DNA of 64,000 nucleotides from a virus: positions 21,458 through 85,457 of IMG/VR virus record IMGVR_UViG_3300045988_107835. The stretch is one strand, 5' to 3'. Position 1 is the first letter of the stretch; every line of letters begins with the position of its first letter. Both the position numbers and the translations under genes were made by a program. Shown one piece after another: positions 3,118 through 49,580 of this stretch. Under the pieces are notes generated by a model. That model had not been told where the DNA came from, searched no databases, and saw nothing but the letters and a program-made list of their open reading frames with translations.

Positions 3118-3191
3118 TCGAATTTAGCTCAGATGGATAGAGCGATACTCTTTTAAAGTATAGGTCGATGGTTCAAATCCATTATTTCATT
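3118..3191 (+). tRNA. tRNA-like element 3: perfect D-, anticodon- and T-arms with UUU (Lys) anticodon loop CTTTTAA, but poorly paired acceptor stem; possible pseudo-tRNA or Y-RNA module
   Basis: D-arm GCTC-AGATGGATA-GAGC, anticodon arm ATACT-CTTTTAA-AGTAT, variable AGGTC, T-arm GATGG-TTCAAAT-CCATT. Acceptor strands TCGAATT/ATTTCAT pair at only 4 of 7 positions. Preceded by conserved module 3094-3117. Confidence 0.45.
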
Positions 3192-3306: not shown

Positions 3307-4941
3307 ATGGGAAAGTTTAACAAAAAGGATGAAGGTGTTAAACCTACGATCGTGAATCAAATGGGCGAGAAGGCGTATAAGCCTAACGCAGAAGAAGAGT
3401 TGGTATCTACGGTAATGACTACCATGTTATCTGATTCTTATTATGAGAAAGAAAAAGATAAAGTAGAAAGAATTAAGAACCTTATGGATCAGGTGGATCC
3501 GTATTTTGCAGCACAAACAGCATTGTATGTTAGGAAAGAAGGAAAGCTTAGGTCAGTAACGCATCTTATGGCTTCTGTCATTGCCAGCAAAGCATCGGGT
3601 AAGGAATGGGCTTCAAGGTTCTATAACAAGATCATTATGCGTCCTGATGATATGAGTGAAATTCTTGGCTGCTATGCGGCTCTTAACGACAAAAATCCAA
3701 AGAAGTTAAGAGGTATATCCAGTGCTATTAAGAAAGGATTCAAGACGGCTTTGGAAGGTCTTGATCCGTACCGGATTGATAAGTATAAGATGGACAGTAG
3801 GGTCATTACTATGGTTGACTTAGTAAACTTATTTCACCCTAAAGGCAATCAGGCTAATAAAATGGCTTTCCAGTACCTTATAGAAGGTCGGTCTTTGTCT
3901 GGATTATACGAAAGCAAGATTCTTGAAAAAGAGATGTCTAAAGCCGGACAGGATAAGAAAGACAATAAGGAAAAGGAAGAAGCTTTAGGTGACGCTATTC
4001 GGGACGTGGTTTCTAATGTAAAAGGCATGCCTATTTTTAATATGGTTCGTAACCTTGTAAACATAATCAAATACGCGCCTGATCAAATAGATGAAGTTTG
4101 TAGGCAGCTTACAATAGAAGAGAAGGTACTTAATTCGAAGATGCTTCCTTTCCGTTTTGCTTCAGCTTTCAAAGAGGTTGAAAATATGGGCACTGATGGT
4201 TCCGATAATGATATTGTATTTGAGTCGGATAAAAAACGAGCTAAATTAACAGCGCGTAATAAATATAAGATTTTAGATGCGTTGGAGAAAGCCATAACCA
4301 TCTCCTGCAAGAACCTGCCGGTATTGGAGGGGCGGTCGGCTATCCTGATTGACCACTCTGGCTCTGTACGTGGAGATATGGGAGGATCTTCTGAGGTGTC
4401 TGCCTTTAGCAAAACAAGTACGGCTGTCATTGGCAACTTGTTTGGCTGTATGATTGCTTCTGTGCTTCCTGACGTATTTATTGGTATGTTTGGTGACAAA
4501 CTTATCAATTACGAATATGATAGAAGTAAAGGTGTTTTATGGAATAACAAAAAATCTTTTACTGCCGGAGGAGAATGCGGTGGTGCCACTGAAAACGGTC
4601 TTTTTGCATTCTTGGATAAGTGCGTTAAAGATAAGATCAAAGTAGATAACTTGTACGTTATTTCAGATATGCAGATAGGAGACGGTGAATCTGTTGTATG
4701 GGAGAAAAGTTCCAGTTATGGATATGGCAAATTCGCCGAACTTTTGAAAGGGTTCAAGAAAGTGAATCCAAATTGCAAAATCGTTTCTATTTCTATTCAA
4801 GGATATGGAAGTGAGATGTTTTACAGAGGATCTAATATCTTGAACATAGCTGGCTGGTCAGAATCTATCTTCGATGTTATTAACAGCAAGTTCTGCGGAT
4901 ATAAGAATATGATTGATGAAATTAAGAAGATTAAGATTTAA
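3307..4941 (+). CDS. rsr: Ro60/Rsr orthologue: TROVE domain plus C-terminal von Willebrand A (MIDAS) domain
   Basis: 544 aa. N-terminal VNQM...DSYYEKEKDK parallels human Ro60 VNQM...GTYYIKEQK; LPFRFASAF matches the Ro60 HPFHILIAL segment. vWA MIDAS: ILIDHSGSV (DxSxS), AGGECGGATENG, LYVISDMQIGDG, GWSESIFDVINSKF, collinear with Ro60 LLAVDVSASM / AGGTDCS / VFTDNE / GFDTGALDVIRNF. Confidence 0.85.
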   Translation: MGKFNKKDEGVKPTIVNQMGEKAYKPNAEEELVSTVMTTMLSDSYYEKEKDKVERIKNLMDQVDPYFAAQTALYVRKEGKLRSVTHLMASVIASKASGKEWASRFYNKIIMRPDDMSEILGCYAALNDKNPKKLRGISSAIKKGFKTALEGLDPYRIDKYKMDSRVITMVDLVNLFHPKGNQANKMAFQYLIEGRSLSGLYESKILEKEMSKAGQDKKDNKEKEEALGDAIRDVVSNVKGMPIFNMVRNLVNIIKYAPDQIDEVCRQLTIEEKVLNSKMLPFRFASAFKEVENMGTDGSDNDIVFESDKKRAKLTARNKYKILDALEKAITISCKNLPVLEGRSAILIDHSGSVRGDMGGSSEVSAFSKTSTAVIGNLFGCMIASVLPDVFIGMFGDKLINYEYDRSKGVLWNNKKSFTAGGECGGATENGLFAFLDKCVKDKIKVDNLYVISDMQIGDGESVVWEKSSSYGYGKFAELLKGFKKVNPNCKIVSISIQGYGSEMFYRGSNILNIAGWSESIFDVINSKFCGYKNMIDEIKKIKI

Positions 4942-5466: not shown

Positions 5467-7705
5467 GTCAGATTGGAAACCTTCAGAAAATATTCTTAAA
5501 TATTTGAAGTCGTGGGAAAAATTTAGGTCAAAACCGTATGACGATGGTGAAGGAAATATTACTGTCGGATACGGATTTAACTTGCCTCACCTTCTTAAAA
5601 AATACAAGAAGGGCATAACGGAAGAGCAAGCAGACAAAGAATTTGCAGGCGTAGTAAATACGTTCGTTCCTGAGTTTAGGAAACTTACTCCAAACTTTGA
5701 TAATCTAAACAATAATCAGCGTGATGCTCTTTTTAGCTTGTATTACAATGCCGGTGCTGATACTTATATGAAAAGTCCTATGCTATTCAAATATCTTAAA
5801 GAAGGAGATTTTGATAAGGCGGTTGAGGAAATAAATCATGACGAATGGAAAGACGACATGGATGGCCAGAAGAAGCGCCGGGCCTTCGAGCGCCGGGTGT
5901 TCTCTACGCCGACATACCAGCCTTGGACGGTGGATGACGACAGTAACTACGTCCTGGTTGAAAACGAGCCCGTAGAGGACAAATCTGTAGGAGAAGGTAC
6001 TGATGGTCCAAAATACGAAGACGCTCGCCATGTGGAAGCTAAATATGATTATACAGGTTATGTGGGTAGAGGATATGACGGAAATAAGGTCAGGGTATCT
6101 GATTCGAATATGAAATCAGTTGGTATATCCAATAACGCTGATCCTGATAAGTGGTATGAATCCGTTAATCCAATATTAGACACTGATCCTATTAGTTTAA
6201 TTGCCGATTTTATTCCTACTATGAAACGTATGTTGGATCCTAATAGAGAGCGATCGGGGGAAGATACAGCCACGGATTTTGAAGAAAAAATGTGGAAAGC
6301 TTACACGGATGGAGATATAAGTAGATTGCCGGCAAGCAAGTATCGTTTTGATGACGATGATGATGGCGCTCAGTATGTAGGATTGCCTCAAGAACAAGCT
6401 ATTTTGATACAATCTTTATTAGATAAAGAGTATATGAACAACATGCTTGACGAGGCATATAAGGATGCTGATAAAAAAAGTAAACGAAAAATAATAGATT
6501 ATAAGAAGGTCCTTGATAAACTAAATAAAAATATATTTGAAAATCCAGGAAAATGGATTTTAGTAAATGAAGGTGTAAGTCCATTTAGAGAAGAAGTATA
6601 TGGTGACAATTTTGAAAAAGTAAACGAAGCTTCCGGATTAGGTGCGTTGAAGAATTTCAGTGTAAGATGGGATCCTGATGCTGGTATGTTGGATGTTAAG
6701 GATGATTATGATTTTAGTCGAAAGAAAATAGCGGAAGACATCGTACCTGAAAGGGATGTCCCTCTTAGAATAAGGGAACGTATCAAATACGATCCTAAGA
6801 AAGGTAGTGTGCTTCGAAATAATGACAAGGCTTTACCTAAAAGGTTTGTAAGGAAATACGAAGAAGGTGGTGTTGTAAATAAACAACGTGAAGCATACGA
6901 ATACTTTACTAATAAGAGAGGCATGTCTAAGATACAAGCGCTCGCCATCATAGGTAATCTTATGGCTGAATCCGGTCTTAAAGATGACATATACGGAGAC
7001 AACAGAACATCATACGGCATACAACAATGGCATAATGAGCGCATGGATAAGTTATTCAAGCACGCCAGAAAAAAAGGTCATTCTACACCCACATTCAAAG
7101 ACCAACTTGAGTTCTTGGCTGACGAATACGAAGGAAAGACCGGATATTCTAATTTCTTATACACAAGAAAAGGAAAAGAAGGACCAGGGTATTACAACTA
7201 CAGCCGGCAGGATTTTATGAACGCCGATAACCTTAAGGATGCTGTAGTAGCTTGGAACCAAGGAGCAGGACGTCCTCATAAGAGTGTTATAAGAAATGAT
7301 GACCGTTATAATTATGCTATGGAGGTTGCTAAAAATCTTGGTTTGGAAATTGAAGAAAATTCCGTATCCTCGTATGGTCAAATGGGATTCGGAGATGATG
7401 CTGAAATAGCAGCATCGGTAACACTTCCAGAGGTAGAAGTGGTAGCCGCCCTTCCTAACCCGGAAGTCCCGTCCCAGGAGAGACAGTCCGAGGAAGAGAG
7501 ATTCCGTACATGGACTGAAACGTGTGGTAAGGACATCATAAATCATTTACTGACGTTAGACGGGAAAAAGGATGGTGATGACAGTGATTACAGCATGATG
7601 TATAAACAGCATGAAAAAGAAAGCGAAGAGGATAAGAAAATGGCTTTGATTAATGCCGTGCTTCCCAATATTCAGCTTCGCATTAAAGGCGTCACTGATA
7701 ATTAG
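5450..7705 (+). CDS. multidomain peptidoglycan hydrolase: N-terminal GH24 (T4-type) lysozyme plus C-terminal second lytic-like domain; probable virion-associated lysin
   Basis: SWEKFRSKPYDDGEGNITVGYGFN matches the GH24 lysozyme catalytic motif (E...D...T-x-GYG); C-terminal region IIGNLMAESGL...YGIQQWH resembles transglycosylase/glucosaminidase motifs; 751 aa. Confidence 0.75.
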   Translation: MAKKSKSDWKPSENILKYLKSWEKFRSKPYDDGEGNITVGYGFNLPHLLKKYKKGITEEQADKEFAGVVNTFVPEFRKLTPNFDNLNNNQRDALFSLYYNAGADTYMKSPMLFKYLKEGDFDKAVEEINHDEWKDDMDGQKKRRAFERRVFSTPTYQPWTVDDDSNYVLVENEPVEDKSVGEGTDGPKYEDARHVEAKYDYTGYVGRGYDGNKVRVSDSNMKSVGISNNADPDKWYESVNPILDTDPISLIADFIPTMKRMLDPNRERSGEDTATDFEEKMWKAYTDGDISRLPASKYRFDDDDDGAQYVGLPQEQAILIQSLLDKEYMNNMLDEAYKDADKKSKRKIIDYKKVLDKLNKNIFENPGKWILVNEGVSPFREEVYGDNFEKVNEASGLGALKNFSVRWDPDAGMLDVKDDYDFSRKKIAEDIVPERDVPLRIRERIKYDPKKGSVLRNNDKALPKRFVRKYEEGGVVNKQREAYEYFTNKRGMSKIQALAIIGNLMAESGLKDDIYGDNRTSYGIQQWHNERMDKLFKHARKKGHSTPTFKDQLEFLADEYEGKTGYSNFLYTRKGKEGPGYYNYSRQDFMNADNLKDAVVAWNQGAGRPHKSVIRNDDRYNYAMEVAKNLGLEIEENSVSSYGQMGFGDDAEIAASVTLPEVEVVAALPNPEVPSQERQSEEERFRTWTETCGKDIINHLLTLDGKKDGDDSDYSMMYKQHEKESEEDKKMALINAVLPNIQLRIKGVTDN

Positions 7706-7738
7706 AACAATTGTTTTATTTCTCATATTAATAAAGCG

Positions 7739-7809
7739 AAGCCGGATTTGAGACTTGTTATGCGGATACCGAAGGTTGAAGAACGATATCAAGATAATCC
7801 GGCTTTTTT
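7739..7809 (+). terminator. long-loop intrinsic terminator after lysin gene
   Basis: AAGCCGGATT (7739-7748) pairs with AATCCGGCTT (7796-7805), enclosing a 47-nt loop, then TTTTTT. Confidence 0.5.
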
Positions 7810-7972
7810 GTGCGATTTCGTGAAGGATGGAACTATCATCGCCTTGGTTTAACAGAACAGACCTACGTACCTCCACTGTCCTGACGGGCATGGACGCCCG
7901 TCTCGCCTACCAGTCTGCCTAATTCTCCACTGGCTACCTAATATAACTATTAACGTCACTCCATCACCTATC

Positions 7973-8133
7973 TCCCTTCAGTCGATAGGTTCAGTCGTTT
8001 TTAAATATTATAAGTTCTTTCGCATCGTTCCCTTCGGTCACGATACTCAATCTTTTAACACAATTAGGCGAACAATACAATGACGGAAAAAGTAATTTGT
8101 CAATCCGTTCACTCACTTAACTCCCTTCGGTCG
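7973..8133 (+). repeat. three direct copies of 12-mer TCCCTTC(A/G)GTC(G/A) in an ORF-free region
   Basis: Copies at 7973-7984, 8029-8040 and 8122-8133. Copy A is followed by duplicated TCAGTCG and TTTTT; copy C is embedded in the hairpin CTTAAC...GTTAAG. Confidence 0.5.
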
Positions 8134-21400: not shown

Positions 21401-22078
21401 GAAGAGGTTTATGTAGAGGGAGATGAGGTTAATAGTATTATGACCGATATGGAATCAAGGTATGGTATAGACACCATCAATCACTCGCATACGACTAAGG
21501 CTATAAGGGATCTTAACGGCGTATCAGGTTATAAAGTAGAATACGGCTTAACCTTTTTGACATACGATCCTTTTATTAGGATATCCAATCCAAGGGAAGA
21601 ATATAAGGCTGCGAAAGACGAGCCTCGTATATCCGAAGAACCGCTTACTCACATATCAAGGGTGACAACCCCTTATTTCCTGTACGGCGGTGATGAAGCA
21701 TATACATCTGTTCCGGCTAAGGTAGAACCCATACCGGAGAAGATAATGGGTCGTAATGGCATTAAATTTGGTATGAGTGTAGTCGAGTTAACCAAATTAG
21801 GGTACAAAAAAGCTGGTGGAAACTGGATATATAAATTCTATATGAACTCAGGTGTGTATGATTTGTATAATATCAGTACCGGTGAAGCGTTTAGGGCAAA
21901 ACCGGATCTTGGAGTTAAGATAAGTTCCAGTGCATTCATCCGCTCTTTATCTCAATCTGGTAGAAAAATACAAAATATGATGAGTAATATGAGCCAGGAA
22001 GAGATAGATAGGAATAAGAATCTCGTAGAAGGTTCTGATAATTCGGATTCGATAAATGAGTTAAATAAGGAGTGTTGA
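15437..22078 (+). CDS. giant virion protein (2213 aa); candidate ejected/cargo protein or virion RNA polymerase subunit
   Basis: Uninterrupted 6.6-kb ORF whose start overlaps the previous stop by 8 nt; giant ORFs of this kind are characteristic of crAss-like phages, but no DxDGD motif was found. Confidence 0.65.
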   Translation: MADNNIDRYNPAAKTTYEDVARQRKLAEEENYTPATLPETTTPLVPNYMPGEGVYAQPKFPDYASRIAAAEYEEPYIAKEISNSYSEALARNSYREATPAPPPLNPYGPKVSIRESHQMGNDGVWRTKYPNYIPGINNEDYYARRQSGWSKFWNGVGKFALKSALYGAQGVVSLPDKLINMASEGSYKAALNTNMDKFVGDLDQQIDMLLPHYYKKEVEDYNFGQKLFKDTGNFLWNDVLGNGMSFTVGAMISAYMTGGLGVGSLGNIGAKLGGRIGAKLAARQAANRGIGSLKGVFNDYVRKGVATGRNVGEAAKTMTLLATSAGFESSVEANSFMKQSESDFKDYYRKIYGRDPNAEEMAVFRNSNADVGSAIFAANMGIVGLSNWLLFGKYIGLGGKAIPGLEKKLNKHLFGLGTEVAKPGEMAIKITNPNIGQKIAGNVFNIMKRPVSEGLWEEGSQGAVQNTAEEYVKSRYDNVAMNGAVDVLDAISEGFKKQYTSKEGWTEIGIGAIIGSLFGMREGFFGVKEYSNSQILLERQVNEYNKASSNLNTAALNTLKKSMSLGPQVRSDAQSMTGKELDDAMFEKMSIDNQMGTLEDSAENFRQMIDMVPISEIAEANGMSLEEAKKYKDSIIDNYNNRLSDFRSAQSFAEDLIGDDSKIEFRKYVARNAFLGLQSESRMKDIASVIETLSGQPRVADALSTFSRLSDRARERAMAIRGIRSRIEELESEIEDLATRPRNVEGKDPQAESIQRKTKELESLRTNYNNSLSELSTLIGKEFSIEELVSKTESVLSSPLSPISSQDVIEAYDTLVAFDDYFNVKSRQEKKFTAKDKAMRSLVNEYRRSLMDYRNMNNFLSKMLDKRFLAEENRGFSKALSSLWSTPYKGDDKVPDFAESNKVGEYDTDEVVDQAVSEGKISEDEAWTIKAFMHALDKAREDRMKEAEDDIKESPLTESVSDEDYEAAMDNPIMVPAVRQSIIDKLYTGNADLLTAREKDVYDKYKQDFDDYVSSLGDSPVNLIKSLSEKADRLTSPRSVYEDNKAIIDMAKSNLEPDQRKELDDAISSYVDIMNRRDKGEKVDEDKLADSVFTIEDLGQVGNITDLLPYIEQNRIIDKGRISESTLSNFGEDDINIDSLVNELDESDNTPGANIDSAQNPETLMVRRISNDGNERYEIAGLRADKFISSIKSLVPIQISSETNANGTKRYSLNIGGETATIIELPYHARWSIDKESARVLNRYTDVSIQDVGNSYSLVYKRLDSDELVPYRTGVGFGENEVDKIDQEALSSLKKGDKVNLEIDVNDTYNQSLFTEYNDAVQSGDKKRIESAENKLVSNMVIKVMSGNRFVSVVKADTGGIDGISKIRRTAFNKWKKDAGRSATIGVGTHVVAQTLPGRPVFNMKVNGQGYGQVENLPITEKGAEKVSDVGYVLNGKVVLKNGSKYTGFPFAYSILNDKGNNYKNVRVPVVVIKGKNGLNYLFPVSLRSVESEEGRKWMSFIDMLLESGDSELLQMGQDDIQDLNAYLTKLGLDPASYQVSYLNPISDLRKAREAIEELSTVPDVVKWVEDGSRSVKDIVTSEVESGIDFEGEMFVAPKIRIQFGKSSSRPKSLIEDDLPFSDEGKTVTSKEDVDVYEEEMPEEGAVRETQPAPLAQPTPAAQAAQSLPGKKRTSRKNFSLMLNEIESHIEKEGLPSYANIFDFIARKIVGGDLRFLRERGNPKSLKEEMGLEPKGTVGDKISTPSSKGGKTLEEYVSWLRSQTDQVVVDYVGPRSDEQIISELKNFLKYINFVPSKALNYSLRVNGMDTLKEYGTKEEVEKMESDINSLVSKVLPTVDNKTVEDVSTAIKSNNLPAIWEPVESLDMTNEEKIEFLNNVADFLSGIPEYDAVVESIESESDNILNDGKEGSAEGGAVRTEEDGDKKGGGEGKGQSRTNVEVKGNIELPGYEEGRVDNYRKNGDKFSDIAEVTLWLLRRAAGITSIPEGEEVYVEGDEVNSIMTDMESRYGIDTINHSHTTKAIRDLNGVSGYKVEYGLTFLTYDPFIRISNPREEYKAAKDEPRISEEPLTHISRVTTPYFLYGGDEAYTSVPAKVEPIPEKIMGRNGIKFGMSVVELTKLGYKKAGGNWIYKFYMNSGVYDLYNISTGEAFRAKPDLGVKISSSAFIRSLSQSGRKIQNMMSNMSQEEIDRNKNLVEGSDNSDSINELNKEC

Positions 22079-42546: not shown

Positions 42547-43566
42547 TCATCGATTTATCTTTTTAGACGGATCCCAATCTGAAGAGAAAGGGCATTCGTT
42601 TTTGTTATGTAATCCAAAGTCACAATAATAACACAGTGCCGACGGGCAGGGTAGCTTGTTTTGCGAAACAGGCTGGCTTAGGGTGGCACGCCGCTTGCTA
42701 TATCTGGCCCCTTCTGCTCCCTGGATGTACGCTTGAAATGATTTTACACTATTATCTTCAAAATCATACATTTTAGATAAAGTGTCATTTAGCATTTCTA
42801 TAGATTTTGTTTTACGCTCTTCATCCACCTTAACCTTTTGGTACTGTCTGGTCCTGGTAAAGAAATAGATGTTCATATCTGGCAGAACTCCACCATATTT
42901 TCTATAGATGTAAAACGAATATATAGGATGCTGTAAATTCGTTTCCAACTTCTTAGAATCAAAAACCTTATTACCTGATTTCCAATCTATGACATAATGG
43001 TGAACTACGTTCTTGCTCTTTATAGCCAGATGAAGATCCACCGATCCTACTATGTACACATGAGTATGAACGGTCCCATTTATATCAACAGGCTTAGGAA
43101 GACGGTACGGCAGCACAAAATCTTCTTCGACTCCAACTATAGCACCGCGTCTAATAAGTTTCTCGCAGGGATTAAGATCACTATCAGCTATCATAAACTT
43201 ATTCCCGTCTTTTTTAAACAGATCCACAATCCAAGCAAGAAGCTCCCCGGATTGCTTCATGGCTATCATCATATTTTCCGGTGATTGCCAAGGTATGTCT
43301 TCTTGATAGGAATAGTAACTTATTGCTTCTCCAAGGTCTTTACCAGAAGGCTGTCTTCCGTTCTTAAAAAAGTATTCCAGTGTCTTATGGATAACCGTAC
43401 CATAAGACGTAGCTTCTTGTTTTTCCGTAGGCCTTTTGCCCTCTACGTAAGTCTTATACCATTTCATTGGACAGGTAAGAAACGTATCTATCTGGGAATA
43501 AGATATGGCAAGACGTTTTACACCATTAAACTCCTTATATAGCAAATGCGTTTCCGGGACCATCAT
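42547..43566 (-). CDS. Cas4/RecB-like PD-(D/E)XK exonuclease with C-terminal FeS Cys cluster
   Basis: N-terminal ISYSQIDTFLTCP, catalytic core GSVDLH ... VIDWKSG (DYKTG-like), C-terminal CPSALCYYCDFGLHNKNEC. Confidence 0.75.
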   Translation of the reverse strand: MMVPETHLLYKEFNGVKRLAISYSQIDTFLTCPMKWYKTYVEGKRPTEKQEATSYGTVIHKTLEYFFKNGRQPSGKDLGEAISYYSYQEDIPWQSPENMMIAMKQSGELLAWIVDLFKKDGNKFMIADSDLNPCEKLIRRGAIVGVEEDFVLPYRLPKPVDINGTVHTHVYIVGSVDLHLAIKSKNVVHHYVIDWKSGNKVFDSKKLETNLQHPIYSFYIYRKYGGVLPDMNIYFFTRTRQYQKVKVDEERKTKSIEMLNDTLSKMYDFEDNSVKSFQAYIQGAEGARYSKRRATLSQPVSQNKLPCPSALCYYCDFGLHNKNECPFSSDWDPSKKINR

Positions 43567-43910
43567 AAGTCATTGTCTTTAAATCCTTCCGGGTAATATA
43601 CGACATACTTCTTACCGTCTTCTGGTGTCATGGCAAACTGCATGTAGTTATTACGATTACGATGCTTGCCATCTAATCCTCGCTTCCAATACAGAATCCC
43701 ATCTATATCCACATAAGACCGTCCGCGTTCGGCTCTAACTACGTCCGTGTGTAGCAGATACCCGTCGGAAGACACAATCCATACTTTATCCCCTTTGTTT
43801 AAATAAGATATTCTTTTTCTTACAACAACCTTTTCCTTATTATCTAATGCAAATTCTTCATCCGTCATATTCTTCATCCTCCTCTTCTTCTGTTTCAAAA
43901 TCAATTCCAT
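43563..43910 (-). CDS. hypothetical protein
   Basis: 115 aa. Confidence 0.45.
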   Translation of the reverse strand: MELILKQKKRRMKNMTDEEFALDNKEKVVVRKRISYLNKGDKVWIVSSDGYLLHTDVVRAERGRSYVDIDGILYWKRGLDGKHRNRNNYMQFAMTPEDGKKYVVYYPEGFKDNDL

Positions 43911-44406
43911 ATCCCATATTCTATTAAATATATTTAAAGCTATTCGTATGTTTTAATACATCCCCTCGGAGACTTTTCGGTCTCCTTGGTAGATGTAAAT
44001 CCCGTTAGGGATAAGTCAGGATTTCTCCTGTAAGTACCCATCGCCAATGTTATTTAAGGTTTTGAATAAGCAACACTGTTCCTCAAATACCAGAACTGTT
44101 CAATCACTTACCTTAGAGCTACAGACTTGGGCAAACATCCGTAGGTAACTATCTATTCTTAAATAACGTAGCCTTTGTTTCAAGGCTTAGGCTAATAACC
44201 CGATCTCTTAAAGAGATGTATTAAACTTTTATAATAGAATTATATTGGTTTAATACTATTTGGGGTTATAACACTGATCATAATGATTGGTCAGTTCTTC
44301 TGGTTCTAAATCTTGTCCAAAATCCATGTTAAAAATATCGTAATTAGTAAAGCACTTAAAAGCACTGTTTCCGCCGGCAGGAAATCTATGAATGCTGCTT
44401 TTATTT

Positions 44407-44454
44407 CTTCAATTAGGCCCAAGTGTAACCTTGGGCCATTGTATTTATTTTTTG
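44407..44454. terminator. hairpin GGCCCAAG/CTTGGGCC immediately 3' of the flotillin gene (bidirectional terminator candidate)
   Basis: 8-bp GC-rich stem, 6-nt loop; U-run on the plus-strand side. Confidence 0.4.
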
Positions 44455-46145
44455 TCATCTCCCTTTAACTTCTTTAAAGTATCTGCAATCGGAAGCTGAT
44501 CGATGACTCCCAATGCCGGAGCGACGGTCTTGACAACATTGTTAAGGAAATTACCGGTACTGTTCTGACCGCCGTCAAATACCGTGATATTTCCGAGGTT
44601 AATGTGCTCAAATGCTTTAACCTGTTCTCCAGCAATTTCTTTCCACTGATTAACCATCTTGTACTGGATGGCGATCTGAGGATTGGATTCTGCTGCTTCC
44701 ACCATAGCCTTAAATCCGTCGGCTTCTGCCATCAACGATTTTTTCTTACCTTCGGCTTCTGCCTCCAGCTTCATCTGAATAGCTTTTGCCTCCGCCTCAG
44801 CTTTTGCCAAATGTGCTGCTGCTTCTGCCTCAGCCCGGCGTTTGATCTTCTCTGCCTCAGCATCAGCTTGCAAGATAGCCTCTTCCTTCTGGGTTTCAGC
44901 CGGCACAATCTTTTCAGCCTTAAGCGCAGCCTGAACTTTCTTAGCCTTAGCTTCTTCCACTTCTTTGTCGGCAAGCTCTTTTGCTGTTTTTACAGCCGCT
45001 TCCGATTTAACTTTTTCTTCTCCGGCCTTCTTCTCTGATTGAGCTTTGATGATCTGTAGTTCTGATACTGATACAGCAACCTCCTTCTGGGCATTGTTGT
45101 ATCCTATAGACGCATTTTTCTCAGCCTCAGCCTTCTTAATCTGAGCTTCAGAGTCTTGTATTGCTATAGCTGCTTCCTTGTCAGCTTCAGCCTTATTCTT
45201 TCCGACTTCTTCCATTCTTTCAGCCTCGGCTTTATTTACTTCAAGTTCTGCCTTAGATCTTACAATCGCCGATTCCTTGTCGGTTAAAGTTTTTGCGATA
45301 ACCGCAGCCCTGTCTCTATCTGCTTGAGCTACGCCGATCTGTCTCTCTTTATCGGTTAAAGCCAAGGCTATTTCTTTTTCTTTCTTCGTTTCAGCTACTA
45401 TCGTTTCCTTTTCTTTTTCAGTACAAGCAATTTGAATCTCTTGTTCTTTTTTGGTATTAGCCACAGCCGTTTCTTTCTCCTTCTGCTGTACAGCAATCTT
45501 AATAGCACCCAGCTTCTCCTGCTCTTCGATATTAGCTTGTGCTTCGTTCAGAGCCCTACTTTCAGCCTCCTTACCAAGGTTCATAATATAACCTGCTTCG
45601 TCTCTGATGTCACTGATGTTGATGTTCAGGAGGTAAAGACCTAACTTGTTAAGCTCGTTATCAATGTTCTTTCTTGCCTTATCCAAAAACTCATCCCTGT
45701 CAGAATTAAGTTTTTCGATTGTCATTTCAGCAATAATCAAACGCATCTGACCGTAAACGATGTCCGTAATAAGATTTTCAGTAGATTCGGTATCCATCCC
45801 CAAAAGTCTTTCTGCCGCATTTTGCATGATTTCGGGATTTGTACTGATAGCTACTGTAATGGTCGTAGGTACATCTACTCTAATATTCTGAGATGACAAA
45901 GCACCGGTAAGCTTGCAATCTATTTGCATAGGCTCCATTGACAAAACATCATAGCTTTGAATAATAGGCAAGACGAATGCCGCTCCACCATGATATAATT
46001 TCGCCGACTTCTTTTCCCCACCTGTCTTACCGTAAACGACCAAGACCTGATTAGGCTTACATCTACGATACCTTGATAAGACTCCGATGATTGTCAAAAT
46101 AATCACTACGGCTAAGATAGCTGACACGTACATGATTGTTGTCAT
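44445..46145 (-). CDS. SPFH/band-7 flotillin-like protein (YqiK/FloA-like)
   Basis: N-terminal TM helix, SPFH core (NQVLVVYGKTGG...), long Ala/Glu/Lys-rich coiled coil typical of the flotillin EA-repeat region. Confidence 0.8.
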   Translation of the reverse strand: MTTIMYVSAILAVVIILTIIGVLSRYRRCKPNQVLVVYGKTGGEKKSAKLYHGGAAFVLPIIQSYDVLSMEPMQIDCKLTGALSSQNIRVDVPTTITVAISTNPEIMQNAAERLLGMDTESTENLITDIVYGQMRLIIAEMTIEKLNSDRDEFLDKARKNIDNELNKLGLYLLNINISDIRDEAGYIMNLGKEAESRALNEAQANIEEQEKLGAIKIAVQQKEKETAVANTKKEQEIQIACTEKEKETIVAETKKEKEIALALTDKERQIGVAQADRDRAAVIAKTLTDKESAIVRSKAELEVNKAEAERMEEVGKNKAEADKEAAIAIQDSEAQIKKAEAEKNASIGYNNAQKEVAVSVSELQIIKAQSEKKAGEEKVKSEAAVKTAKELADKEVEEAKAKKVQAALKAEKIVPAETQKEEAILQADAEAEKIKRRAEAEAAAHLAKAEAEAKAIQMKLEAEAEGKKKSLMAEADGFKAMVEAAESNPQIAIQYKMVNQWKEIAGEQVKAFEHINLGNITVFDGGQNSTGNFLNNVVKTVAPALGVIDQLPIADTLKKLKGDDKK

Positions 46146-46176
46146 AACTTTTAAAATTTAATTGTTGATAAAAAAA

Positions 46177-46671
46177 TTAGATACTTAATTCTCCTTCTTC
46201 ATATTTTATATTCGCCTTGTCGCCGTTTTTGTAGGTTTTCCCAGACAAGCATCTTACTCTCATTTGCTCTTGTCTTCCATTTTTCGAAATATTTACCATA
46301 TAATGATTCTTCCCTGATCTAAATACTATCTCCACTTCTCTTCCGTTTAAATCTTCCGGACATTCGTACACCATTTCTTGCTTTAACTTAAGAAGTAACT
46401 TATATACGTAAAACAAAATGATAAAGAAAAACGACCCTATCACAACCCCTACTAAATGGGAACCCGAAAAGTACGTGGCCCAGCTATATCCAAGAATAAA
46501 ATGCGTTATACCCTTGAATGATATGATGTCCGACAAAGACATGCTTAAATCAGAAGCACTGTCAATGTCAATATCCGTATCCAGATCAGATCCTAATATC
46601 GACAACAAAAACTGTATAACAAAAGCAAATGACGCTATTAAAGCCATGCATAAAATTATATCACTTCCCAT
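46177..46671 (-). CDS. NfeD-like membrane protein (YqiJ-like) with C-terminal OB-fold
   Basis: Two to three N-terminal TM helices then a beta-barrel segment GREVEIVFRSGKNHYMVNI; immediately upstream of the SPFH gene, as in yqiJK. Confidence 0.6.
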   Translation of the reverse strand: MGSDIILCMALIASFAFVIQFLLSILGSDLDTDIDIDSASDLSMSLSDIISFKGITHFILGYSWATYFSGSHLVGVVIGSFFFIILFYVYKLLLKLKQEMVYECPEDLNGREVEIVFRSGKNHYMVNISKNGRQEQMRVRCLSGKTYKNGDKANIKYEEGELSI

Positions 46672-46912
46672 ATCCTTTTGTTATTATTTTGTAAACAAGA
46701 TCAGTCATATCTTTGATGGATTCTGTATCATAATCAATAATAACGATATTGAATTTTTGTTCCACCATCACATCAAGCTCAATTCGATCAATAGAATCTA
46801 ATCCAAGTTCTTCAAACGACACATCTTCTTCATGAACTATATCTATTTCCGAATGAAGAAACTGAGTAATAATTATATCCTCTATTATCTTTCTAATTCT
46901 TACTTTTTCCAT
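46661..46912 (-). CDS. acpP: acyl carrier protein
   Basis: FEELGLDSIDRIELDVMVEQKF matches the ACP phosphopantetheine-attachment motif (DSL/DSI Ser); 83 aa, acidic, four-helix spacing collinear with E. coli ACP. Confidence 0.8.
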   Translation of the reverse strand: MEKVRIRKIIEDIIITQFLHSEIDIVHEEDVSFEELGLDSIDRIELDVMVEQKFNIVIIDYDTESIKDMTDLVYKIITKGYGK

Positions 46913-47613
46913 TGCTTTCTAATTTTGTTAAATAAATACGTTTTTATATTTTTCAATCGCTCTTTGTCTGTTTCTGAGCTTCCGGTAAACAAATAATCCG
47001 GATTTCCTTTAGCCGGCGGCGTGGGCAATTTAGATACAGCAAACAACCAATCCATTTCCTTATTCTTCTTAGGCTCCAAATAAGGCTCGGTAGCGATCTT
47101 AAATTTTTCAGCTATTAAGTCAAAGAGTTTTGAGTTTTTGAGGTTCATATGAACCGAGAAAGCCTGAGAAGGCGGTTTCCATATGAAGTTACATAAACTC
47201 ATTGTGTAATCTCCTGACTCTGCTATATAAGATTCTGTTACTTGAAGTATGACCTCTTTCTTAAATGAAGTATTACCCATAAACCAACACAATCTGGATT
47301 CCGCTTCTTTTCTGCTGACACCTATGTCTTTTGAATATGATTCGTACATTCCTATCATAATCTTCAACGTCTCCAGAACCTCGTCCGTCACTTCCGGTGT
47401 CTCTATATAATTCACAAAAGACGTTCCTTTGTTGGTTAATCTCATCACGCCTGATTTTAATTTCTCAACCAGACCAAGCTCTATATATCTCCCAGCATCT
47501 TCTTCCGGCATGGCTTCGATCATAACCGTGTCCTTCTGTCTTATGGCAAGAAGATTGGCAAGATCATTAGGAGTCATGTCTGATGCTGCAAGTTGTCTGA
47601 AATTGATGTACAT
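46900..47613 (-). CDS. hypothetical protein
   Basis: 237 aa, no motif. Confidence 0.5.
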   Translation of the reverse strand: MYINFRQLAASDMTPNDLANLLAIRQKDTVMIEAMPEEDAGRYIELGLVEKLKSGVMRLTNKGTSFVNYIETPEVTDEVLETLKIMIGMYESYSKDIGVSRKEAESRLCWFMGNTSFKKEVILQVTESYIAESGDYTMSLCNFIWKPPSQAFSVHMNLKNSKLFDLIAEKFKIATEPYLEPKKNKEMDWLFAVSKLPTPPAKGNPDYLFTGSSETDKERLKNIKTYLFNKIRKQWKK

Positions 47614-47615
47614 TC

Positions 47616-47813
47616 TTAATCAGCTTTAATAAAAATAACATTCTTGTTATCTTGTCTATCAACATGTCCACATGGACCAATAATTATGTCTGTACATGAA
47701 CAAGAATCGTAATCTTCGAATATACACCTATCGCATGTATCACCTTCCACACATTTTAATCTTACAAGTCCGGCAGTAAATACTTCTCCTACTTTAAATT
47801 CCTTCTTTTTCAT
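47616..47813 (-). CDS. small Cys-rich protein
   Basis: 65 aa; AAGGAGG RBS. Confidence 0.45.
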   Translation of the reverse strand: MKKKEFKVGEVFTAGLVRLKCVEGDTCDRCIFEDYDSCSCTDIIIGPCGHVDRQDNKNVIFIKAD

Positions 47814-47828
47814 ATTCCCTCCTTGTTT

Positions 47829-48431
47829 TCAACTGTTGTACCCTTCTTTAATAATCGAATTTCTACCGGTAGATACCGACTGTCGAAGATCGTCATGTAC
47901 AGAATCTACCGTAGAATACTTGTTTCTGGTTGTAAAAATCACTTCCAGCATCTCCTTGTAATCACCTAAAGCTACTTCGTATCTCGGATCTACTTTGGCT
48001 TTTCTTTCGGCCTCGGCATTACTTTTAGCCAGTTCTCGGTCGAGGAGGTCTTCTTTGATTCGGTCAGCAATCATATCAAGTTCTTTTTTAATAACTTCTC
48101 CTGCTGCCCGAAGTTGACCTTCTACATCACCAAGCTGGTCTTGGACGGTTCCTATTTCTTTCTTTAAACGATCATATTCGTTAATCATACCCATATCACC
48201 TGCATAGCCGGAAAAGTCCTTGATTATTCTGGTTCCTTCTTTAAGGAGCTCAATGACTCGTCTTTTACGTTCTCTGCTTATTAAAGACGGAAGACGATAA
48301 TTCATATCCGCCACCGCCTTGTCATGTATGGAGTTGATTAAAAACATCTCTCTCTCATCCCCTGCAAACTCCGTAAGAACCAAAAGGAACTTATTTATCA
48401 GGTATTCGTTTTCTTCTACTGTTAGTCTCAT
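47829..48431 (-). CDS. hypothetical coiled-coil protein
   Basis: 200 aa. Confidence 0.5.
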   Translation of the reverse strand: MRLTVEENEYLINKFLLVLTEFAGDEREMFLINSIHDKAVADMNYRLPSLISRERKRRVIELLKEGTRIIKDFSGYAGDMGMINEYDRLKKEIGTVQDQLGDVEGQLRAAGEVIKKELDMIADRIKEDLLDRELAKSNAEAERKAKVDPRYEVALGDYKEMLEVIFTTRNKYSTVDSVHDDLRQSVSTGRNSIIKEGYNS

Positions 48432-48446
48432 GGTTCTTATTTTTTT

Positions 48447-49580
48447 TTAATACAATGACTGTTCTCCCTTTGCCTCTTGTTCTTGATCTTGATTGTTCGT
48501 AACGTCTTCCACAGTATAGAGCTTGGGCGGCGTCGGCGGCTGGTTGGGATTCACGAACTTCGTCCCTCCCTCCCCGTACATCCATCCATGCCCCGGCAGA
48601 ATCTCTGGGTGGATTGTGTTAGTAAGCTCTTCCATGCTAACCTGCCTTACTTTCAGTATATGATGAAACACCAGTCCGGCTGTCCTGAATGATGTTTTGT
48701 TTTCAGTTTTAAACCTATCAAGAGTCTGATACCAATCTTTCCCAAATATCATATACTTATCCAGCCCGTACCGACGAGGATTATGCAAACCTATCATTAA
48801 CGTACATAACTGACCCAGTGTATCAGATTGGTAAAAATCAGAAAGACGAGGAGGCTGCTCTTGTGGACTTTTTATCCTTCCTTCTATCTCTCTGTTGAAT
48901 TGGGATATGATGAGGAAAAATATGTTTTTATATACTAATTTAGCCTCATTCATAACCGCCACCAAATCATCTATAGCCGACTTAGGATCTAATCCCATTC
49001 TTTTTATTAAAGCAATATGATCGACTTTAAATATTATAAGACGTTTGTTTTTGTGCTTGTTAGCTATATGATACACAGCCGCCTCAAACTCTTTTACCGT
49101 ACACGGAGCATCGATGTATATTATATTATTTCTGATTTCACCTTGAAGGATTTCAAACATCCTCATCTCTTCTACTGTATTAGAATCTTGCCTTCTTAAT
49201 ATTTCAGGAGCTCGCTTTTTCATATCTTGGCTCATTCTGCGAAGAAGAAGATCCTGAGGATTCATTTCGAACTCGCAATTGACAAGAAAATAATCTTCTG
49301 CTTGCGGGTTGATCATCGGATTCATCACATTTTCCAATATCTTTTGGGCCACATACGATTTACCTACAGATGGCCGGGCTCCTATAGCAATAGCATGCTG
49401 AGGAAAAATACCTCCAAGCAAAGCCTCATCAATATAATCGTATCCGGTTTTAGCGGGGATAAGCTCTCCCCGCCTGTATTTTAAGATATTCTCATACGCC
49501 TCTTCCATAACCTGTTTAGAGGTCTTGAATATCCTTCTTATATCTATCCTATTTGCTATCTCCTCTTGCATTTTTGTCAC
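48447..49580 (-). CDS. DnaB-like replicative helicase (RecA-fold C-terminal domain)
   Basis: Walker A GARPSVGKS, Walker B-like IIFKVDHIAL; DnaB family layout. Confidence 0.7.
   Translation of the reverse strand: MTKMQEEIANRIDIRRIFKTSKQVMEEAYENILKYRRGELIPAKTGYDYIDEALLGGIFPQHAIAIGARPSVGKSYVAQKILENVMNPMINPQAEDYFLVNCEFEMNPQDLLLRRMSQDMKKRAPEILRRQDSNTVEEMRMFEILQGEIRNNIIYIDAPCTVKEFEAAVYHIANKHKNKRLIIFKVDHIALIKRMGLDPKSAIDDLVAVMNEAKLVYKNIFFLIISQFNREIEGRIKSPQEQPPRLSDFYQSDTLGQLCTLMIGLHNPRRYGLDKYMIFGKDWYQTLDRFKTENKTSFRTAGLVFHHILKVRQVSMEELTNTIHPEILPGHGWMYGEGGTKFVNPNQPPTPPKLYTVEDVTNNQDQEQEAKGEQSLY

Follow-up and report, generated by a model that had tools for sequence, protein, structure and literature searches.

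Flotillin–NfeD operons are, to our knowledge, nearly universal in bacteria, and their role is poorly understood. The described SPFH2–NfeD2 operons, in which NfeD2 is weakly conserved, include Bacillus subtilis yuaF–yuaG (nfeD2–floT) and Escherichia coli yqiJ–yqiK (Hinderhofer et al. 2009, PMC2636767). With these two operons the phage pair analyzed here shares the gene order from nfeD to flotillin with a short gap, a flotillin in which the N-terminal anchor is followed by the SPFH domain, the EA-rich coiled coil, and the C-terminal Flot domain, and a partner of ~165 residues with N-terminal hydrophobic stretches and an all-β OB C-terminus that is weak for standard HMMs; the phage pair differs in being flanked by a phage acyl carrier protein (ACP) gene and a tail-anchored ORF, both absent in the cellular operons. 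In Staphylococcus aureus, FloA–NfeD oligomers stabilize unfolded membrane proteins without ATP, and NfeD stabilizes the flotillin oligomer (Ukleja et al. 2024, PMC11222466). The role proposed below takes its mechanism from this system, which is likewise a flotillin–NfeD operon; its FloA, however, is short, belongs to another flotillin subgroup, and acts in a Gram-positive cell. SPFH membrane proteins are found in lytic phages too, as in the 'flotillin family protein' of Vibrio phage KIT04, PHROG 200, and the SPFH lipoprotein of phage GIB1 (PMC13239085). However, the KIT04 flotillin is just 30% identical to the present one, over half the protein, and its upstream gene encodes an 82-residue membrane protein without an OB domain and with no detectable similarity to the phage NfeD family; in comparison with these other phage SPFH genes, it is a complete partner pair that appears to have been captured in the lineage described here. 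ACP genes are known from Flavobacterium jumbophages (PMC13573597) and have also been reported in several marine phages. The orphan phage ACPs (PHROG 5934) and the present one are alike small acidic PP-binding proteins with a DS(L/I)D site and no accompanying fatty-acid synthase, but the latter is divergent, below every NCBIfam ACP cutoff, fast-evolving, and sometimes pseudogenized.

The window, a stretch of 64,000 nucleotides (positions 21,458 to 85,457 of IMG/VR virus record IMGVR_UViG_3300045988_107835), derives from a lineage of phages with genomes of roughly 150 kb that are common in the human gut and presumably infect Bacteroidales; the lineage is of the csAssE-Sib type, which is crAss-like according to the depositors' naming. 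Positions 43500–48500 are 97% identical to phage csAssE-Sib (OR575929.1), and the lineage is abundant, with 164 contigs in IMG/VR; our literature search found no paper on csAssE-Sib or on flotillin in crAss-like phages. The three minus-strand ORFs of the original prediction were recovered at exactly the predicted coordinates, with 566, 164, and 83 residues (Table 1), and are regarded as real genes, not chance ORFs, because all three are under purifying selection across 77–79 related contigs. Together with a 50-residue ORF, they are situated on the minus strand within the phage replication gene block, where the succession of a 237-residue gene, ACP, NfeD, flotillin, and the 50-residue ORF is spaced by −13, −11, +31, and −14 nt. 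The NfeD–flotillin pair is packed without room for a promoter of its own, and scans for sigma-70 promoters and terminators gave no excess over the shuffled expectation, with models that do not cover Bacteroidetes promoters. The overlap of the ACP gene with the NfeD start, which had been singled out in the prediction, amounts to 11 nt at the ACP stop, and the ACP gene itself overlaps the upstream 237-residue gene by 13 nt; because overlapping genes are the rule in the whole block, the ACP–NfeD overlap is non-specific. A polymorphic orphan HEARO (IscB-type omega-RNA) insertion is located just downstream.

Table 1. Genes of the flotillin locus, with positions in the window and features in residue numbers
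Gene product	Position	Strand	Predicted features	Basis
Flotillin (SPFH2-type), 566 aa	44445..46145	-	Membrane anchor 1-28; SPFH 30-211; E/A/K-rich coiled coil 212-449; flotillin C-terminal domain 450-559	Pfam Band_7 and Flot, hydropathy, host identity
NfeD2-type flotillin partner, 164 aa	46177..46671	-	Hydrophobic segments; conserved acidic D-x-D-x-D loop; C-terminal OB-like beta domain ~105-164	Family profile, predicted fold, synteny
Orphan acyl carrier protein, 83 aa	46661..46912	-	Net charge -10	PP-binding, PHROG 5934
50-aa ORF	44306..44458	-	C-terminal hydrophobic (tail-anchor-like) segment	Hydropathy, phage-only occurrence

In the domain search, the largest product scored above the cutoffs of both Pfam Band_7 (PF01145; 91.7 bits; cutoff, 23.6; E-value, 7.6e-26; residues 30–211 aligned with positions 4–176 of the 176 in the profile) and Flot (PF15975; 39.1 bits; cutoff, 27; E-value, 9.3e-10; residues 450–559). 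Its only hydrophobic segment is N-terminal (residues 1–28; Kyte–Doolittle maximum, 2.83) and is the predicted membrane anchor, and the composition of residues 212–449 is 17% E, 21% A, and 16% K, so that the earlier assignment as an SPFH/flotillin with a transmembrane anchor and an EA-rich coiled coil is upheld. Against the FloT equivalog of NCBIfam (NF058507), the protein scored 144.8 bits, below the cutoff of 700; judged by these profiles, it belongs to the flotillins but is no orthologue of FloT. The C-terminal domain is 80–88% identical between phage and host, comparable to the 86–87% between hosts, whereas the coiled coil has diverged from the hosts (53–56% identity) and is 33 residues longer in the phage. 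Tandem repeats were considered as the source of this length variation and rejected, none being present at the DNA level.

The partner assignment, an NfeD-like protein with an OB fold in the original prediction, has a different standing. The 164-residue protein has no match in Pfam, including NfeD (PF01957), even at E ≤ 10, none in PHROGs or PADLOC, and just two sub-threshold chance matches in NCBIfam; the assignment holds only via remote evidence from a family profile, the predicted fold, and synteny. Within the family of 83 members, PF01957 was matched by three (best E-value, 6e-5), and YqiJ_N and YqiJ_OB of Pfam were matched by none at E ≤ 0.01; the description 'yqiJK-like' therefore applies to the type of operon but not to membership in the Pfam YqiJ families. 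As for the fold, the model contains helices at residues 2–25, 52–69, and 72–101 (hydropathy segments, 1–30 and 67–96) and ends in a five-stranded OB-type β domain resembling solved NfeD domains, and the best sequence match among solved structures is YuaF. The length and the layout of hydrophobic N-terminus and linker also agree with the description of NfeD proteins (~140–170 residues) in PMC2636767. The NfeD alignment contains no conserved stretch of 7–10 residues, and host loci were found with the flotillin alignment. The closest family representatives, P0290 and P0291, were considered as further phage lineages and rejected, one having a bacterial context and the other being an uninformative short contig.

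The direct source family of the pair is the chromosomal nfeD–flotillin operon of Bacteroidales, with which the phage copy shares gene lengths, spacing, and conserved NfeD motifs. The flotillin is 62–67% identical (tblastn; ~69% over aligned columns) to its counterparts on the chromosomes of Bacteroides, Parabacteroides, Prevotella, and Phocaeicola, and the NfeD proteins of phage and host are 29–42% identical. NfeD lies directly upstream of flotillin at all 80 phage loci and at 79 of the 80 Bacteroidales loci, the intervening gap being 31 nt in the phage and 14–133 nt, mostly 20–26 nt, in the hosts (23 of the 24 representatives checked; the B. xylanisolvens representative was left out because its −166-nt overlap is an artefact of ORF extension). 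On a bacterial contig, the pair stands amid housekeeping genes, with an NfeD 39% identical to the phage protein (E-value, 4e-40); in contrast to this setting, the phage copy is placed in the replication block, forms a separate clade, and has the coiled coil extended by 33 residues. The flotillin and NfeD trees agree in grouping the phage copies as one clade outside all sampled host genera, and the distance from the phage copies to every host (identity, ~69% for flotillin and 33–42% for NfeD) exceeds that between any two hosts. On this phylogenetic footing, the phage pair represents a single capture of a nearly universal Bacteroidales chromosomal nfeD–flotillin operon, and we regard the identity and host origin of the pair as very likely. 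Given the divergence from the hosts, the function of the pair may have shifted. No paper on the Bacteroides flotillin–NfeD pair was found in the literature searched.

The selective constraint was compared among 77–79 related contigs. The pN/pS ratio was 0.041 for flotillin and 0.063 for NfeD, and between phage lineages flotillin shows 82% identity, against 75–84% for the replication proteins; an abundant gut phage lineage thus keeps a complete captured pair under selection as strong as that on replication genes. Such retention provides independent evidence that the flotillin–NfeD complex matters during infection stress. The ACP gene, with a pN/pS of 0.365 and nonsense alleles in 5 of 77 copies, all with intact flotillin, is ~6–9 times less constrained than its two neighbors, and it is merely 40% identical between lineages with 82%-identical flotillin. 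Since natural deletion variants without NfeD–flotillin exist, in which the ACP gene is kept intact, and TAG-nonsense flotillin alleles occur (3 of 79), the phage can do without the pair under some conditions at least, an observation as compatible with an accessory or arms-race gene as with one for maintenance. In human gut metagenomes, alleles of full length are found side by side with nonsense and clean-deletion alleles, which constitutes a natural experiment on the purpose of the complex.

The 83-residue protein carries a genuine ACP signature, as had been proposed from its motif LGLDSIDRIEL, with the attachment Ser40 located within LGLDS. It scored above the cutoff of Pfam PP-binding (PF00550; 26.7 bits; cutoff, 20.8), matched PHROG 5934 'acyl carrier protein' (2.6e-8), and gave 116 matches to solved structures at E ≤ 1 in phmmer (best E-value, 2.5e-6), the best 60 of the 116 all being ACPs. 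The original prediction would have been refuted by homologues lacking the serine, but Ser40 is kept without exception among 37 distinct variants, one of them the 40%-identical copy of the diverged phage lineage L087. All 16 NCBIfam ACP models stayed below cutoff (best, 30.9 bits against 71), and the protein thus falls short of the canonical AcpP equivalog. The AF2 model is unreliable (pLDDT, 46; shallow alignment), with helices at residues 2–20, 43–54, and 64–79 that are compatible with a four-helix bundle. Large protein searches for ACP relatives were saturated, among the matches listed, by near-identical sequences; as for flotillin-less relatives with the same ACP, INPHARED holds only csAssE-Sib, and the L087 ACP is without IMG/VR relatives. 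Recoding of TAG to Gln was considered for the in-frame stops of the ACP alleles and rejected, the stops being TAA and TGA and hence plain nonsense mutations. The suggested check for a phosphopantetheinyl transferase (PPTase) or acyl-ACP enzymes yielded no recognizable PPTase, acyltransferase, ketosynthase, or ligase among the annotated genes of the phage and 67 unannotated proteins of ≥100 residues, and an AcpS/Sfp-like ORF was likewise absent from the phage at E ≤ 10 (with approximate query sequences). If active, the ACP would depend on the host AcpS for charging. No ACP gene occurs at a distance of up to 5 kb from the pair at any of the 80 Bacteroidales host loci. Because the host operon is without ACP, no partner enzymes were recognized, the constraint is relaxed, and the gene is retained after deletion of the pair, the functional tie between ACP and flotillin suggested in the original prediction is unsupported; the ACP is probably a separate, fast-evolving phage gene that is linked to the flotillin pair by position and not by mechanism, and it should not count as evidence of phage lipid metabolism.

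On the other side of the pair, the 50-residue ORF, which overlaps the stop codon of flotillin by 14 nt, was found at all 80 phage loci and at none of the 80 bacterial loci, and the L087 lineage has a 52-residue counterpart after flotillin with the same topology and 42% identity. Its pN/pS is 0.39, and it has no family match in Pfam or PHROGs. This ORF may encode an accessory membrane peptide of the module.

For the captured pair we tentatively propose a role in membrane maintenance, by analogy with the S. aureus system and at somewhat less than even probability. The flotillin would insert into the membrane via its N-terminal anchor and, by means of its coiled coil and its C-terminal domain, form oligomers that make up a scaffold or cage attached to the membrane; the OB domain of the NfeD partner would bind and stabilize this scaffold. 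Expressed along with the replication proteins, the pair would supplement or replace the host flotillin–NfeD complex, with which it may co-assemble, and the cytoplasmic membrane and its proteins would thereby stay functional during infection, following the logic of an auxiliary gene. A captured host pair with this role and a separate ACP is the best explanation overall, which we favor slightly, as a compromise between the high confidence in the identity of the pair and the lower confidence in its role.

A coupling of all four genes appears improbable. According to this alternative, ACP, NfeD, flotillin, and the tail-anchored peptide would form one module that brings acyl-ACP to a flotillin patch for lipid alteration or protein lipidation, and it would account for the contiguity and overlap of the trio, whose adjacency is kept in all three phage lineages seen (80/80 loci; the diverged L087 and L171), for the overlapping stop and start codons, which suggest translational coupling, and for the invariant attachment serine. 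The overlaps, however, follow the rule of the block and are non-specific, and the coupling would have to be reconciled with a pN/pS of 0.37 for ACP against 0.04–0.06 for the pair, nonsense alleles in 5 of 77 copies beside an intact flotillin, and an identity between lineages of 40% for ACP against 82% for flotillin, besides the ACP-free host loci (0/80 within 5 kb), the lack of a recognizable PPTase, acyltransferase, ketosynthase, or ligase among the proteins covered, and the retention of ACP where the pair is deleted. About equally doubtful is the idea that the phage builds a flotillin/NfeD cage of its own, with accessory subunits in the form of the tail-anchored peptide and, perhaps, the ACP, as a dedicated platform for a phage process. 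Long, low-lysis infections are reported for crAss-like phages, and such a platform could be the site of membrane-anchored replication of the genome or of assembly, or could protect the energized membrane during such infections; if true, this would be the first SPFH membrane-compartment system encoded by a virus of bacteria.

The defence or anti-defence role raised in the original prediction gained no PADLOC support: flotillin, NfeD, ACP, and the flanking unknown proteins had no match in PADLOC-DB at E ≤ 0.01. A scaffold that alters the inner membrane against DNA injection by other phages, or that sequesters membrane-acting abortive-infection effectors, would nevertheless suit membrane proteins encoded in an early/middle block, and the dispensability of the pair in some variants, with its nonsense alleles, is typical of conflict genes; the phage copies have also diverged from the hosts faster than the hosts among themselves. 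Selection on the pair is, however, strongly purifying and not diversifying, with flotillin conserved like core replication proteins, and the literature searched offers no precedent; we consider superinfection exclusion or anti-defence unlikely. A dominant-negative takeover, in which the phage flotillin co-assembles with the host complex and poisons or redirects it, is less probable still: the host-like oligomerization domain at the C-terminus (80–88% identity, like that between hosts) and the diverged coiled coil (53–56% identity) with 33 extra residues could make such a subunit, but a poison subunit needs no full-length NfeD partner of its own under strong purifying selection, and all flotillin domains are intact. 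That the genes arrived recently by horizontal transfer and are passenger DNA without function would agree with their host derivation and with the deletion variants, yet this reading is effectively refuted by the selection data (pN/pS, 0.04–0.06) and is highly improbable, the pair being kept across lineages that differ by 16–25% in replication proteins, in a monophyletic phage clade deeply diverged from all hosts and in a lineage as abundant as 164 IMG/VR contigs.

The practical gains from these assignments are modest. The GenBank record of csAssE-Sib already annotates flotillin and ACP, and its 164-residue 'transmembrane protein' can now be re-annotated as an NfeD-type flotillin partner.

The genes for the ACP, the 164-aa protein, and the flotillin lie within a long minus-strand block, which begins near 36 kb, where the GC skew switches sign, and also encodes replication proteins (an SNF2-type helicase, a PD-(D/E)XK exonuclease, a DnaB-like helicase, and a primase). 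The coordinates of the three minus-strand ORFs named in the original prediction match exactly, and a small ORF follows them. The successive spacings from an upstream 237-aa gene through the ACP, 164-aa protein, and flotillin genes to the 50-aa ORF are -13, -11, +31, and -14 nt, too tight for each gene to have a promoter or terminator of its own, and the module genes are therefore probably co-transcribed. The region 43500-48500 is 97% identical to the phage csAssE-Sib (OR575929.1; 151 kb, human gut), the annotations of which already include 'flotillin family protein', 'transmembrane protein', and 'acyl carrier protein'. Relatives of the flotillin, the best 80 of which are at least 96% identical, are encoded on 164 IMG/VR contigs, indicating that the phage lineage is common.

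Features of the module and of other elements in the window
Feature	Position	Strand	Description
Flotillin	44445-46145	-	566-aa ORF
Flotillin coiled-coil region	44800-45510		
NfeD2-type partner (middle protein)	46177-46671	-	164-aa ORF; assignment supported
ACP	46661-46912	-	83-aa ORF
Small ORF	44306-44458	-	50 aa; overlaps flotillin stop codon
Hairpin	44416-44437	-	8 bp, G+C-rich; GGCCCAAGGTTACACTTGGGCC
HEARO RNA (Rfam RF02033, IscB-type omega-RNA family)	44030-44269	-	full-length; 104 bits vs gathering score 83; E 2.4e-20
tRNA gene	3118-3191	+	Rfam tRNA, 53.3 bits

The SPFH/flotillin identity of the 566-aa protein is secure. Its matches to Band_7 (7.6e-26) and Flot (9.3e-10) both exceed the Pfam cutoffs, and a single N-terminal hydrophobic anchor and an E/A/K-rich central region agree with the predicted membrane anchor and coiled coil. 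By its NCBIfam score (144.8 bits; cutoff, 700 bits), the protein is not a FloT equivalog. Close relatives (proteins P0249-P0289) differ widely in flotillin length (408 to 595 aa) owing to in-frame insertions and deletions within the coiled coil, of which P0266, for instance, lacks ~90 residues; no DNA tandem repeat in this region accounts for the variation. A bacterial flotillin (P0279, 659 aa; L086 at 6001-7980) carries an internal duplication of ~100 SPFH-domain residues, with the segment '...STDPEVMQNAAERMLG...' present twice; the duplication is real or was introduced during assembly.

Searched singly, the 164-aa protein matched no family, and its close homologues, found in this phage lineage only, contain no recognizable Pfam domain. 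A profile of five clean homologues, run against 1.84 billion representatives, retrieved 420 relatives, mostly of 160-180 aa; NfeD (PF01957) was the sole recurrent Pfam family among 83 aligned members, though in only three of them (best E 6e-5). The top match of the family profile among solved structures, spanning the whole C-terminal domain, was YuaF (2K14; E 0.033), the NfeD2 partner of B. subtilis FloT (PMC2636767). The AlphaFold model (mean pLDDT, 74; 83-90 in the beta domain) has three N-terminal helices followed by a C-terminal beta domain, against which generic OB folds, e.g. ribosomal uS17, score nearly as high, so that the fold by itself is not decisive for NfeD. What carries the case beyond this remote evidence is the gene context: amid housekeeping genes on a bacterial contig, the gene immediately preceding a flotillin gene encodes a 165-aa protein with 39% identity (E 4e-40). 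NfeD2 partners of prokaryotic flotillins have the same architecture and poor sequence conservation (Hinderhofer et al., PMC2636767). Taken together, the profile, the model, and the context support an NfeD2-type partner. The predicted NfeD-like gene upstream of the flotillin is thus retained, whereas membership in the YqiJ family is unsupported, because no YqiJ Pfam model matched in a scan of the 83 family members.

In a scan of one genome per species, the flotillin was found in Bacteroides, Parabacteroides, Prevotella, Phocaeicola, Leyella, and Xylanibacter at 62-67% identity. The NfeD gene is directly upstream of the flotillin gene in 79/80 Bacteroidales chromosomal loci (the sequence of the remaining one ends 50 nt upstream), mostly with a gap of 20-26 nt, and in all 80 IMG/VR phage loci. 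An ACP-like ORF lies within 5 kb in 80/80 of the phage loci and 0/80 of the bacterial loci, the latter counted with tblastn and an ACP profile, the positive control of which recovered 79/80 phage loci. Neighbour-joining trees of flotillin and of NfeD each place the three phage lineages together, in a single clade that falls within no host genus; identity between the phage and any host genus is about 69% for flotillin and about 33-42% for NfeD, as compared with 81-88% and 43-69%, respectively, between host genera. The simplest reading of these sequences is a single capture of the whole operon, predating the separation of the phage lineages and followed by faster divergence than in the hosts; alternatively, the donor may have been an unsampled lineage.

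The pN/pS values calculated from 77-79 contigs are 0.041 (flotillin), 0.063 (NfeD), and 0.049 (the upstream 237-aa gene). Between the window and the diverged phage lineage L087, identity is 82% for flotillin and 62% for NfeD, with 75-84% for the replication proteins. Region by region, identity between phage and host flotillins is 76-81% for the SPFH domain, 80-88% for the C-terminal domain (host-host identity, 86-87%), and 53-56% for the coiled coil, which is longer by 33 residues in the phage. The low pN/pS, the conservation across lineages, and the regional identities indicate that the phage maintains a full, working NfeD-flotillin pair. The pair can also be lost: two natural variants (loci L169 and L170; two samples; at 4001-4591) have a ~1.6 kb deletion with the ACP and every flanking gene intact. 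As products of this kind of deletion, several metagenomic 'homologues' (P0020, P0032, P0028, P0030, P0046, P0047, P0009, and P0013) join the NfeD-like N-terminal 90-120 aa, in-frame or out-of-frame, to about the last 70 aa of flotillin. TAG stops at codon 405 or 490 of flotillin in 3/79 copies (L052, L076, and L077, contigs otherwise intact) may be nonsense, recoding, or sequencing error.

The predicted ACP holds up as, by sequence, a real family member: its PP-binding match exceeds the Pfam cutoff, it matches PHROG 5934 and, across the DS(L/I)D site and helices II-III, >100 solved ACPs, its net charge is -10, and Ser40 is invariant across 37 variants, including the L087 copy (40% identical). 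It is divergent, falling under every NCBIfam ACP cutoff, and its structure model is too poor for use. A functional link to the flotillin pair, as originally proposed, is unlikely, because the ACP is missing from the host operon, no recognizable partner enzymes were found, constraint is relaxed (pN/pS, 0.365), and the ACP survives deletion of the pair. Neither a PPTase nor an acyl-ACP enzyme was recognizable among the annotated csAssE-Sib genes or, by Pfam scan, in 67 proteins that lack annotation and are 100 aa or longer, and no AcpS/Sfp-like ORF was retrieved from the phage. Nonsense codons interrupt the ACP at codon 22, 43, or 52 in 5/77 copies (L005, L016, L019, L042, and L045) on otherwise intact contigs with an intact adjoining flotillin; recoding is rejected as the explanation, since the codons are TAA or TGA and not TAG. 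Orphan ACP genes have been reported in other phages, as here.

The data above establish the identity, origin, selection, and layout of the pair, whereas its mechanism is inferred. SPFH proteins are membrane-attached oligomeric scaffolds. In the FloA-NfeD system, the oligomer that flotillin forms is stabilised by NfeD and keeps hold of unfolded membrane proteins in an ATP-independent manner (PMC11222466). By analogy with this established SPFH/NfeD biology, the phage pair would be made alongside the replication proteins and, while infection proceeds, would keep the host's membrane maintenance going or assume it, a role we propose tentatively and at somewhat less than an even chance. A role in superinfection exclusion or anti-defence is unlikely; PADLOC gave no defence-system match for any gene here, and thus no support for the defence role suggested originally. 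The 50-aa ORF, present in 80/80 phage and no bacterial loci, has a C-terminal hydrophobic segment, a pN/pS of 0.39, and a 52-aa counterpart of the same topology in L087, and its product may belong to the module as a membrane peptide peculiar to the phage.

The host-like C-terminus of the phage flotillin makes co-assembly with host flotillin conceivable; takeover of this kind by poison subunits we regard as improbable. The ACP stays adjacent to the pair in every phage lineage examined, and a search for relatives with the ACP and without flotillin found none; given the evidence against a link, an ACP-coupled module is nonetheless quite doubtful. That a pair so constrained is passenger DNA is scarcely credible. 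Membrane maintenance is the preferred reading.

The operon type is well known from yuaFG and yqiJK (PMC2636767), and SPFH or flotillin genes occur in other phages (Vibrio phage KIT04, PHROG 200, and phage GIB1). Unlike the pair here, the KIT04 flotillin has no detectable NfeD partner. The product of the KIT04 gene directly upstream (L085 at 3680-3928) is a multi-pass membrane protein of 82 aa in which an acidic DLDD stretch follows the first hydrophobic segment and an OB domain is lacking; its similarity to the NfeD family described here is not significant (hhalign probability, 4.8%), and it could serve as a flotillin partner, whether minimal or unrelated. The literature searched yielded no paper on csAssE-Sib or on flotillin in crAss-like phages. 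The flotillin and ACP annotations in OR575929.1 were already public; new here are the assignment of the 'transmembrane protein' to NfeD, the host origin of the pair, the contrast in selection between pair and ACP, and the apparent decoupling of the two.

The window tRNA gene disagrees in position with a simple coordinate offset to the csAssE-Sib tRNAs, which implies that the two genomes differ by indels or rearrangements somewhere upstream of the region analysed here. The hairpin, also kept in csAssE-Sib, lies 8 nt past the flotillin stop codon within the 50-aa ORF and is followed by no T-tract; it may act in RNA stability or attenuation, or may have arisen by chance. The HEARO RNA lies in the 395-nt gap just downstream of the module, inside a ~360 nt insertion (roughly 43911-44275) that csAssE-Sib does not have, and no IscB or HNH ORF adjoins it. 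The element occurs at the same site in 15/80 related phage loci as two sequence types (98-99% and 87-89% identical), with a second copy ~1.5 kb away in one locus (L058). It has the look of a mobile orphan omega-RNA, carried by a gut phage without an accompanying protein gene.
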